A stretch of 32,000 bases of DNA, taken from positions 1,080,001-1,112,000 of the forward strand of contig NZ_CP089976.1 of assembly GCF_022701215.1 (NCBI RefSeq), written 5' to 3'. The position numbers were made by a program, and so were the translations under genes. A model generated the notes under the pieces. The model searched no databases and had not been told where the DNA came from. It was given only the letters and a program-made list of their open reading frames with translations. This document shows positions 23,382 through 32,000 of this stretch, piece by piece (within the stretch, counting starts at the first letter, position 1; each line of letters starts with the position of its first letter). This DNA comes from Moraxella nasovis. GTDB taxonomy: Bacteria; Pseudomonadota; Gammaproteobacteria; Pseudomonadales; Moraxellaceae.

Positions 23382-26300
23382 TTAGTCAATAACACCGCTC
23401 ACACCAATACGGAAGCCTGTATCGCCTTGGGTGGCAGTAGATAGTCCACTAGAGAACGCCCAGCGACCGTTATCAGCGGTTTTACGCAAGGTGGCAGCAA
23501 ATGCCTGTTCGCCACCATAAGTTGCTGCACCGACTGCATAGGTCCATTTACCAGGCACGAATGGAGCTTCTTCAAATGCCATCGCTGAAGCGATACCTGC
23601 TTTGGCATCACGGTCTACTTTTGCCAGACCTTGACCTAACTTTTGTGACAAGGCATTAACTTGAGACATATTAACCGCATCGGTATCTTTCACCCCTGGT
23701 GCTACGTTAGATAGTACCGCAGGAGATACTGTGCTGCCGCTGGCGTTTTGCACTGAGACAATGATCTGATTAGGATCAATTGCCTGACCTTGGGCATTGA
23801 CAAATTTACCTTCATCGTTCTTAGAAACTGTGTTGCCGCTCCGGTCAGTATAGACTACAGGAGCAGATGTATTAGCTTGTTTGATCACTTTTGTTAAGTG
23901 CTCTTTACTTACTACATCGCCATCGTCAACAGCTTCACCAATGTTTTTGATGACCTTGCCGCCCAAATCAATACCCGTATCTTTATCAATAACGATTGGG
24001 CCAACAGTAACTTTATCCGTCTCAATGGTTTTAGCTTTTAGGTTGCCATCAACAGTTTGATCGCCTTTAACAGTGCTACTACCTTCAACGGTTTGGTCAC
24101 CCTTAACAGTTTGACCACCTTCAACGGTTTGGTCGCCTTTGATGGTACTGCTACCCTCTACGGTTTGGTCGCCTTTGATGGTGCTGCTACCTTCGACAGT
24201 TTGATCACCCTTAACAGTTTGACCACCTTCAACCGTTTGATCACCTTTGATGGTGCTACCGCCTTCTACCGTTTGATCACCTTTAACAGTACTGCTACCT
24301 TCGACGGTCTGATCACCTTTAACAGTACTGCTACCTTCGACAGTTTGGCTACCTTTAACAGTTTGATCACCACCTACTGTTTGTTTACCATCAACCGTTT
24401 GATCACCGCCTATAGTTTGGTTGCCTTTAACATCTTGGTTACCAATGATTTGGTTATCACCATATTGTTTGGTATTACCAATTTGAGTGGTATCACCTAC
24501 TTGAGTGGTGTTGCCAGTGTGAGCAATATCACCTTTGATGTTTTGACCTTTGTTGAAGTTGGCTTTACCATCTACAGTTTGGTTGCCTTTAACTTCTTGA
24601 TTACCTGCTACCGTTTGCTTGCCACCAACAGTATGATTACCTGTGGTAGTGGTATTACCAATTTGAGTCGTGTCACCGATATGTACGATGTCACCATTAA
24701 AGTTAGCAATACCATTCGTCGTCAAGTCGTTGGTACTAATGCTATCAAAACCTTTGATGTCTTTCGCCAGTTTTAAGTCATAACCACTCGCATCGCCGTT
24801 TTTAATCACCGCAATGTTGTTCTCTTGGTTGACTTTCGCTTTGTCAGTAATACCACCGTTTAACAATAAGGTTTCGCCCAATGCACGTTTAACTTCTTCT
24901 GTTTCTCCTGCATTGATGTCACCTTTGTACTGAGTACCTTTGGTAGATAAAGTATTGGTCAACTCAGTTACCTTAGTATCTAACTGACCCTTAGTAATCG
25001 CATCACCAGCTTCTGTACCATCTTTGATGTTTTTGATTTGACCGTCTTTGGTAATGGTTAAACGTGTGTCTTTTTCGCCTTTTTTAGGAGCTTCACCCAC
25101 TTTGATTTCATTGGTCACTTCAAGGTCTTTGGTGGTTGTTTTACCATCAACAGTTTGATCGCCTTTAACATGACTGTTACCATCAACAGTTTGATCACCA
25201 CCTATAGTTTGGTTACCTTTAACATCTTGGTTACCAATGATTTGGTTATCACCATATTGTTTGGTATTACCAATTTGCGTGGTATCACCTACTTGAGTGG
25301 TGTTGCCAGTATGAGCAATATCACCTTTGATGTTTTGACCTTTGTTGAAGGTAGCAGTGTCGTTAAATGTAGCTTTACCATCTACAGTTTGGTTGCCACC
25401 TACTGTTTGGTTGCCTTCAACTGCTTGGTGACCATAAAGATGGTTATCACCATATTGTTTGGTGTTGCCAAACTGGGTGGTGTTACCTGTATGGAATATT
25501 TCACCATTGACGTTTTGACCTTTGTTGAAGGTAGCAGTGTCGTTAAATGTAGCTTTACCATCTACAGTTTGGTTGCCACCTACTGTTTGGTTGCCTTCAA
25601 CTGCTTGGTGACCATAAAGATGGTTATCACCATATTGTTTGGTGTTGCCAAACTGGGTGGTGTTACCTGTATGGAATATTTCACCATTGACGTTTTGACC
25701 TTTGTTAAAATGAGCAGGACCATTAAAGGTAGCTGTACCAGTCGTGGTTAGGTTTTTAAACTCAACATTGTCTTTAGTGGCAAAGGTGAATTTACCAGCA
25801 TCTTGGACAATTTTGATGTTTTTACCAGCATCATAAGTGATAACATCATCAGCATTGATGAACTCACCTTCACTTTGCTCATTTTCAGTAGCTTTAGTAG
25901 GTAATGCTTTACCTGTTTTTAAGAAATCTATTGCTTGCTCTTTTGTAATAACAGGTCTGTTACTTTCAAACTCACCACCTTCAGACTTCGTTGCTTTAGC
26001 AATAAAGCTTGAGTTATCAGCAGCTTTAGATAATTTTTCTACTGTCGTATCTAACTGACCCTTAGTAATCGCATCACCAGCTTCTGTACCATCTTTGATG
26101 TTTTTGATTTGACCGTCTTTGGTAATGGTTAAACGTGTGTCTTTTTCGCCTTTTTTAGGAGCTTCACCCACTTTGATTTCATTGGTCACTTCAAGGTCTT
26201 TGGTGGTTGTTTTACCATCAACAGTTTGATCGCCTTTAACATGACTGTTACCATCAACAGTTTGATCACCACCTATAGTTTGGTTACCTTTAACATCTTG

Positions 26301-32000: not shown

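Follow-up and report, generated by a model that had tools for sequence, protein, structure and literature searches.

Among the trimeric autotransporter adhesins, AtaA of Acinetobacter (Moraxellaceae) carries mosaically arranged domain repeats and builds fibres of over 200 nm, and it is accompanied by TpgA, a peptidoglycan-anchoring partner; a 2026 preprint sets out how TpgA is built and what it does. In BadA of Bartonella henselae and its Vomp relatives, recombination multiplies, removes and reshuffles neck and stalk modules, giving 18–34 domains per strain (PMC8859334). These multi-domain repeats escaped detection until long reads were used, and they are collapsed in short-read or Sanger sequences (PMC8859334). 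The adhesin Cha of the Haemophilus cryptic genospecies contains a variable number of tandem repeats that, as summarised in PMC9704523, modulates head exposure, adhesion and biofilm formation. Periscope Proteins (SasG, Aap, Rib/alpha C, Sgo_0707 and Esp) have tandem repeats of more than 50 amino acids (aa) that are at least 80% identical (PMC8201768), and it is this high DNA identity that makes repeat number, and with it stalk length, vary (PMC8201768, PMC9704523). They are monomeric single-chain rods, and the review of the class explicitly leaves trimeric autotransporter adhesins out as "lacking tandem repeat domains" (PMC9704523). Here we analyse a 32,000-nucleotide (nt) stretch of the genome of Moraxella nasovis, a bacterium of the sheep nose (contig NZ_CP089976.1, positions 1,080,001 to 1,112,000; hereafter the window), one end of which contains the 3′ part of a trimeric autotransporter adhesin gene whose passenger includes a perfect array of 1071-nt tandem repeats. 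The Hsp33 encoded in the window is 100% identical to that of M. nasovis, and five of the window's proteins have exact counterparts among GenBank UNU72554 to UNU72574.

The adhesin passenger contains a perfect array of 1071-nt repeats

The adhesin gene lies on the minus strand (23382–32000), where the reading frame is open from position 32000 down to a stop codon at 23382–23384, a run of 2872 codons, and the 5′ end of the gene lies beyond the window. Shifted by 1071 nt against its own sequence, the window shows 0 mismatches from 24976 to 32000, the last mismatch being at position 24975. The perfect array on the minus strand therefore measures 7025 nt, or 6.56 units of 1071 nt (357 aa), which is a lower bound, since the outermost unit is truncated by the end of the window and the array must extend past position 32000. 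An independent repeat search returned seven copies spaced by exactly 1071 nt, and the protein sequences of the six complete 357-aa units were all identical on translation. In the phase used here, which takes the unit nearest the membrane (24978–26048) as the reference, the unit boundaries on the minus strand fall at 24978, 26049, 27120, 28191, 29262, 30333 and 31404, and the last unit (31404–32000) is the one cut by the window. Tandem Repeats Finder (TRF), which handles only periods of up to 500 nt and shows sub-repeats rather than the 1071-nt period, reported sub-repeats of 18, 36, 108 and 180 nt, recurring every 1071 nt.

A chance origin of the array was ruled out, as chance cannot yield 7 kb of perfect periodicity. 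Derivation from a mobile element was also ruled out, because the units lie in frame inside one open reading frame (ORF), and it is further countered by the unit matching nothing in Pfam beyond adhesin motifs. The ORF list contained an entry at 23382–31544 with a GTG start; translation revealed no in-frame stop near 31544, and the entry is an artefact of listing at the window edge. A 198-aa plus-strand ORF runs antisense to the gene once per unit (25155–25751, 26226–26822 and so on up to 30510–31106), and most likely it merely arises from the sequence that encodes the hexapeptides and does not represent a gene.

Duplications of several ages are present at the adhesin locus

The same gene contains repeats that are far less uniform than the array. 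Ten 36-nt (12-aa, GDQTVEGSSTVK-type) repeats at 24030–24389 on the minus strand are older and diverged, with a mean pairwise nucleotide identity of 72% (TRF: 8.7 copies, 78% matches). Those encoding the same peptide differ from one another at up to 6 of 36 nt, and the differences among the repeats are largely at synonymous positions.

The non-array passenger next to the membrane (23631–24975, minus strand) consists, according to BLASTP, of a diverged paralogue of the unit followed by two more necks. Alignment of the unit with the C-terminal region gave 45–52% aa identity to this membrane-proximal module (E = 3e-45). As the module is a diverged paralogue (45% aa identity), the array would have arisen from an existing module. 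Its most unit-like patch, at 24348–24560 on the minus strand, can be set against window positions 25140–25352 in the array (unit A) as an internal clock: blastn aligned the two at 92% over 210 nt, with 57 identical codons and 5 synonymous differences. In the array, by contrast, there are 0 synonymous differences in 7 kb. At the level of sequence, the patch comparison implies an older split followed by purifying selection.

A further duplication is nested within the unit. The lag-180 map revealed 2.08 perfect copies of a 180-nt (60-aa) sequence at 25332–25706 on the minus strand (unit nt 343–717), TRF placed the 180-nt period at 25297–25706 and at every 1071-nt step thereafter, and a third copy adjoining the perfect pair is about 88% identical (repeat family D1). 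This perfect duplication occurs at the same offset in every unit. Since all units carry the identical number of 180-nt copies, no internal slippage has taken place since the last amplification or homogenisation, that is, since their common ancestor. The locus thus displays duplications of several ages, at 72% identity, at 88%, at 5/57 synonymous differences, and then the perfect 180-nt and 1071-nt repeats. The simplest reading of these sequences is that one module would have been amplified recently, or that a homogenising sweep would have taken place recently.

The original prediction, made by a model from the letters and a list of ORFs, had claimed at least 6.5 apparently identical 1071-bp repeats in an array continuing past the window. 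The 6.56 mismatch-free copies encoding identical proteins and the final partial unit cut at position 32000 agree with both statements, and the self-alignment that it had named as a check of unit identity proved perfect over 24976–32000. Its contrast between the perfect array and older 36-nt repeats was likewise upheld by their 72% mean identity and many synonymous differences. The proposal of a very recent amplification or homogenisation fits the internal clock (5/57 versus none in 7 kb).

The adhesin has an AtaA-type anchor and is followed by a tpgA-like gene

The C-terminal coiled coil and YadA-type β-barrel anchor are encoded at 23385–23630 on the minus strand. The C-terminus matched the Pfam family YadA_anchor (PF03895; 31.4 bits versus a cutoff of 22.7), and its last 82 residues matched the structure of the AtaA anchor from Acinetobacter sp. 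Tol 5 (9vnj_A; 100 bits, E = 1.2e-27), with 50 of 82 positions identical (about 61%); matches to Hia anchors were weaker. YadA_stalk (PF05662) scored 142.7 bits over 7 stretches, one per neck, and the neck motifs DAITKGQL and DAVNMSQV occur in the passenger. A Pfam match to PPAK in the adhesin was treated as spurious, as no single stretch passes alone.

The gene immediately downstream (22438–23307, minus strand), which starts 75 nt after the adhesin stop codon, encodes a TpgA-like periplasmic partner of 289 aa from an MKLIK start. Exact look-up identified the protein as GenBank UNU72574.1, annotated as "OmpA family protein". It matched the Pfam families BamE (34.3 bits) and OmpA (60.5 bits), and the arrangement of a BamE-like N-terminal domain and an OmpA C-terminal domain fits the published architecture of TpgA. 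Its top match was the NCBIfam model TpgA (NF047726); because the score of 242.7 bits lies under the 350-bit cutoff, the sequence supports its description as a TpgA-like homologue and not as a certified TpgA equivalog. A terminator-like hairpin with a T-run (23344–23371, minus strand; 12-pair stem in a terminator scan, -26.4 kcal/mol, z = -4.6) separates the adhesin stop codon from the start of the tpgA-like gene, and could determine how many adhesin transcripts are made relative to those of the partner.

The claim that the array belongs to a trimeric autotransporter adhesin is therefore confirmed by the YadA_anchor match, the seven YadA_stalk stretches, the AtaA-like anchor and the adjacent TpgA-like gene. 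By its anchor and partner gene, the gene can be assigned as an AtaA/TpgA-type trimeric autotransporter adhesin of M. nasovis, and membership of this family suggests that the protein would be a homotrimer.

Architecture and predicted fold of the 357-aa unit

The reference unit (24978–26048, minus strand) comprises a coiled coil, a segment of ~90 aa, a block of hexapeptide rungs and a neck. It opens, directly after a neck, with two heptads of coiled coil, TTVEKLSKAADNSS (aa 1–14). The next ~90 aa, which are poorly modelled, include a small strand-rich segment, ITYDAGKNIKIVQDAGKFTFATKDNVEFKNL. From about aa 103 to aa 306 (~200 aa), the sequence consists of ~34 hexapeptide rungs (GNQTVx, GNTTQx and similar), and the unit ends in a neck, ...IKNIKDGTEAGDAITKGQLD, closing with ...GDAITKGQLD.

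An AlphaFold2 model of the unit, computed as a monomer from an alignment built from hexapeptide-repeat proteins, contained regular 6-residue strands at aa 105–306 with pLDDT values of 80–87, and values below 50 elsewhere. Foldseek searches with this model returned generic β-helices only (E of 0.05 or worse). Searched alone, the unit matched no Pfam family at E < 0.01 (best Gp5_C, E = 0.04), and the profiles Hexapep (PF00132), Bactofilin (PF04519) and left-handed β-helix (LbH) yielded no significant match. Nor was any significant sequence match found in the PDB, where the best candidate was a γ-carbonic-anhydrase-like LbH protein (E = 0.012). More distant relatives of the unit do match the Bactofilin and LbH models. 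The modelled strands, the generic β-helix matches and the relatives that match Bactofilin and LbH suggest a β-helical fold class for the hexapeptide part. Having neither a Pfam family nor a match to a solved structure, the hexapeptide module of the passenger appears, on these searches, to be structurally undescribed.

The hexapeptide module has relatives in Pasteurellaceae adhesins

The unit was searched exhaustively against 1.84 billion representative proteins, which produced 580 matches at E <= 1e-3 and 0 at E <= 1e-30. The matches mainly cover aa 95–310, the best of them at 24–51% identity, and a word-indexed protein search gave best identities of 37–50% over a quarter of the query. The named matches belong to Pasteurellaceae of animal airways (Ursidibacter, [Pasteurella] aerogenes, Glaesserella, Rodentibacter and Otariodibacter) and are YadA-family or "beta strand repeat-containing" proteins. 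Adhesins of this family provide the best sequence matches to the hexapeptide part, at 45–51% identity, and an Ursidibacter protein also shares the order of modules, with a small domain of the type "...TYxAGKNIKxxQ...DNVxFxNL" preceding its hexapeptide block. They differ from the M. nasovis protein in that identity is 30–50% and only part of the unit is covered. The sequence comparisons thus point to an anchor of the Moraxellaceae (AtaA) type and to Pasteurellaceae as the source of the closest named relatives of the passenger module. The relatives retrieved contain at most 1.5–3 perfect copies of any long repeat, and among 316 retrieved proteins the longest perfect repeat was of 350 aa at 1.5 copies; most come from short-read assemblies, and this bias means that the figures were not used as evidence of rarity.

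A metagenome scan with the unit and the C-terminus found no relatives. A scan of a genome collection with the TpgA-like protein identified one related locus, in a metagenome-assembled genome (MAG) of Moraxella sp. (L001, JAUNDZ010000005.1), whose TpgA is 73% identical and whose adhesin anchor shares 70% identity with that of M. nasovis. In the MAG, the contig stops within the orthologous adhesin gene (L001 1–473), 470 nt upstream of the stop codon of that gene, which is consistent with repeats breaking short-read assembly.

Origin and possible consequences of the array

We favour, with a probability of about 70%, the interpretation that the array is a genuine block of identical modules in the passenger of an AtaA-type adhesin, in which a module was duplicated and then amplified by unequal homologous recombination. 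One pre-existing module, comprising coiled coil, small domain, hexapeptide β-helix and neck, would first have been duplicated. Unequal homologous recombination between sister chromosomes would then have multiplied the duplicated module, and may also have kept the copies uniform. Perfect direct repeats of kilobase length are efficient substrates for RecA-dependent unequal sister-chromatid exchange, and we infer that the copy number would be unstable. Amplification of modules by recombination between repeats follows the same logic as that proposed for BadA and the Periscope Proteins. Since the unit is 3 × 357 nt long and runs from neck to coiled-coil boundary, gain or loss of units would leave the reading frame intact and keep the domain grammar. 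The fibre would become longer or shorter, as opposed to being turned on and off (phase switching).

The fibres of AtaA, a protein of 3,630 aa, are 200–260 nm long. Scaled from AtaA, each unit may contribute ~20–25 nm, and the 6.56 visible units may account for ~150 nm of fibre; in mass, a unit would contribute about 37 kDa to each chain. The number of units would alter both the projection of the N-terminal part and the number of copies of the repeated surface that are displayed. BadA and Cha make it reasonable to expect, as the original prediction did, that fibre length would vary, and by the same analogy reach, valency, aggregation, biofilm formation and antigenicity would be affected. Should the array prove real and unstable, M. 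nasovis would be able to change how far a major surface fibre extends, and its valency, with the frame retained, which would bear on colonisation of the sheep airway, aggregation and antibody escape.

Several points weigh against this interpretation. The typical bacterial mutation rate is about 2–5e-10 per site per generation. At such rates 7 kb would stay unmutated for ~1e5 generations, so the perfection of the array needs no ongoing homogenisation; "recent" is to be understood on an evolutionary scale, and ongoing homogenisation is possible and not required. Among the searched data a single genome carries the adhesin gene, and no copy-number variation was observed. Outside the window lie the 5′ boundary of the array and both the N-terminus and the promoter of the adhesin. 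The adhesin of M. nasovis is in neither of the protein libraries searched, where its neighbours UNU72554 to UNU72574 are all present. Lastly, consensus polishing can erase real differences between units. The absolute identity and the copy number rest on the assembly and are provisional, as sequence alone cannot confirm the chromosome. The original prediction was right to be cautious here, and the copy number of this gene in the public assembly should be treated likewise; assemblies of relatives from short reads will be interrupted at the locus.

This last point leads to the rival that we regard as unlikely, though less so than the others, namely that the array exists but that assembly or polishing gave a wrong copy number or that multi-mapping reads erased differences between units. 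Perfect kilobase repeats are the classic case of assembly failure, the BadA gene was mis-sized by 2.7 kb until long reads were obtained (PMC8859334), the contig of the related Moraxella MAG ends inside the orthologous adhesin gene, and nothing within the window validates the unit count. The source record, however, is a single 2.03-Mb contig, implying long reads, and the array is in frame and free of indels over 7 kb while the other genes of the window look intact, which argues for a high consensus quality. A wholly spurious array is impossible, since one contig crosses at least 7 kb of it, so that the concern is with the number and purity of the units and not with their existence.

Two further explanations accept the array and differ as to its age or function. 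The array might be old and not the outcome of a recent burst, its units having stayed identical through continuous concerted evolution, by gene conversion or unequal exchange, with selection favouring uniform modules. The identity includes the edge unit, right to base 24976, and the many duplication ages at the locus suggest long-active recombination, both of which would suit this explanation; yet edge units usually diverge in arrays undergoing unequal exchange and here the edge unit is perfect, and the 0 matches at E < 1e-30 in 1.84 billion representative proteins give no sign of an old shared array. Both objections are mild, and one genome cannot separate concerted evolution from recent amplification; we consider the former quite improbable. 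It is slightly more improbable still that the adhesin is a decaying or silent pseudogene whose repeats have no current function. Its absence from both libraries, with the flanking proteins present, and the position of the 5′ part of the gene outside the window would be compatible with decay: the gene may be annotated as a pseudogene, or the protein may simply have been left out. That absence may equally reflect how the libraries were constructed. Against decay stand 2872 codons without a stop or frameshift, the synonymous-only divergence of the paralogous segments, indicative of purifying selection, and the intact partner gene tpgA. Amplification of a module in a genuine array thus remains the interpretation that we prefer.

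Other features of the window

The stretch from 416 to 11591 encodes HsdM, a RhuM-family protein, HsdS, a Fic-family protein, HsdR, a DUF3990 protein, an Abi_2 abortive-infection-like protein and a second HsdS, and it looks like a defence island. The two hsdS genes, for the type I restriction specificity subunit (2958–4061 and 10440–11591), have the same orientation and share a 98%-identical stretch of 300 nt (3528–3827 versus 11055–11354). Their products are identical over ~150 aa, covering the second target-recognition domain and the C-terminal conserved region, and differ in the first recognition domain. The second hsdS, 7.5 kb downstream, is a spare allele, and recombination between the two could change the specificity of the enzyme.

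The G+C content rises to 0.53 at 12001–13000, compared with about 0.42 around it. This segment lies inside a minus-strand gene (11640–13091) that encodes a rubredoxin fused to an NADH:rubredoxin-reductase-like flavoprotein, and the raised G+C suggests that the gene may be horizontally acquired.

Comparison with known systems

The AtaA/Ata and TpgA pair of Acinetobacter, another member of the Moraxellaceae, is similar to the M. nasovis locus in its homologous anchor, in the BamE-like and OmpA-containing partner encoded immediately downstream, and, for AtaA, in a very long modular passenger. The modules themselves are unrelated to the solved AtaA domains, no PDB sequence matching the unit: AtaA contains Ylhead, Trp-ring and FGG domains, whereas the head-like part of the M. 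nasovis protein consists of hexapeptide repeats. Moreover, the repeats of AtaA are described as mosaic, in contrast to a perfect tandem array, and the M. nasovis partner differs from TpgA in falling under the curated cutoff (242.7 versus 350 bits).

BadA resembles the M. nasovis protein as a trimeric autotransporter adhesin with multiplied neck and stalk modules, although no sequence relationship was detected between them. Its modules are of 68–147 aa, fall into several similarity classes and are arranged as a mosaic, whereas M. nasovis has a single 357-aa multi-domain unit at 100% nucleotide identity. Cha is likewise a trimeric autotransporter with tandem repeats. The Cha repeats are short coiled-coil segments of 28 aa, unlike the 357-aa unit, which contains whole folded domains.

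With respect to repeat size and identity, the array lies at the extreme of what characterises the Periscope Proteins, at 357 aa, 100% identity and at least 6.56 copies. It differs from them in the trimeric autotransporter anchor of the protein, which departs from the monomeric rod, and in that variation in repeat number from strain to strain is documented for the Periscope Proteins while the M. nasovis gene is known from one genome. We tentatively put forward, as a possibility that we hold to be doubtful, that the adhesin is a trimeric counterpart of the Periscope Proteins, whose length would be tuned at high frequency within a population by gain and loss of 357-aa units around an undescribed hexapeptide β-helix, possibly intertwined from three chains. 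If so, few repeat units reported for such proteins would be as large or as perfect as this 357-aa unit, and the published view that these adhesins lack tandem repeat domains would be contradicted (PMC9704523). The locus would then offer a clean natural test of the Periscope principle in trimeric adhesins, in which domain-sized perfect repeats are easily scored. The hexapeptide module, found at 30–50% identity in adhesins of animal-airway Pasteurellaceae, would be a reasonable target for structure determination. Set beside AtaA, BadA, Cha and the Periscope Proteins, the array is an extreme and unusually clean case of module amplification, a known means of varying adhesin length, and not a new kind of system.

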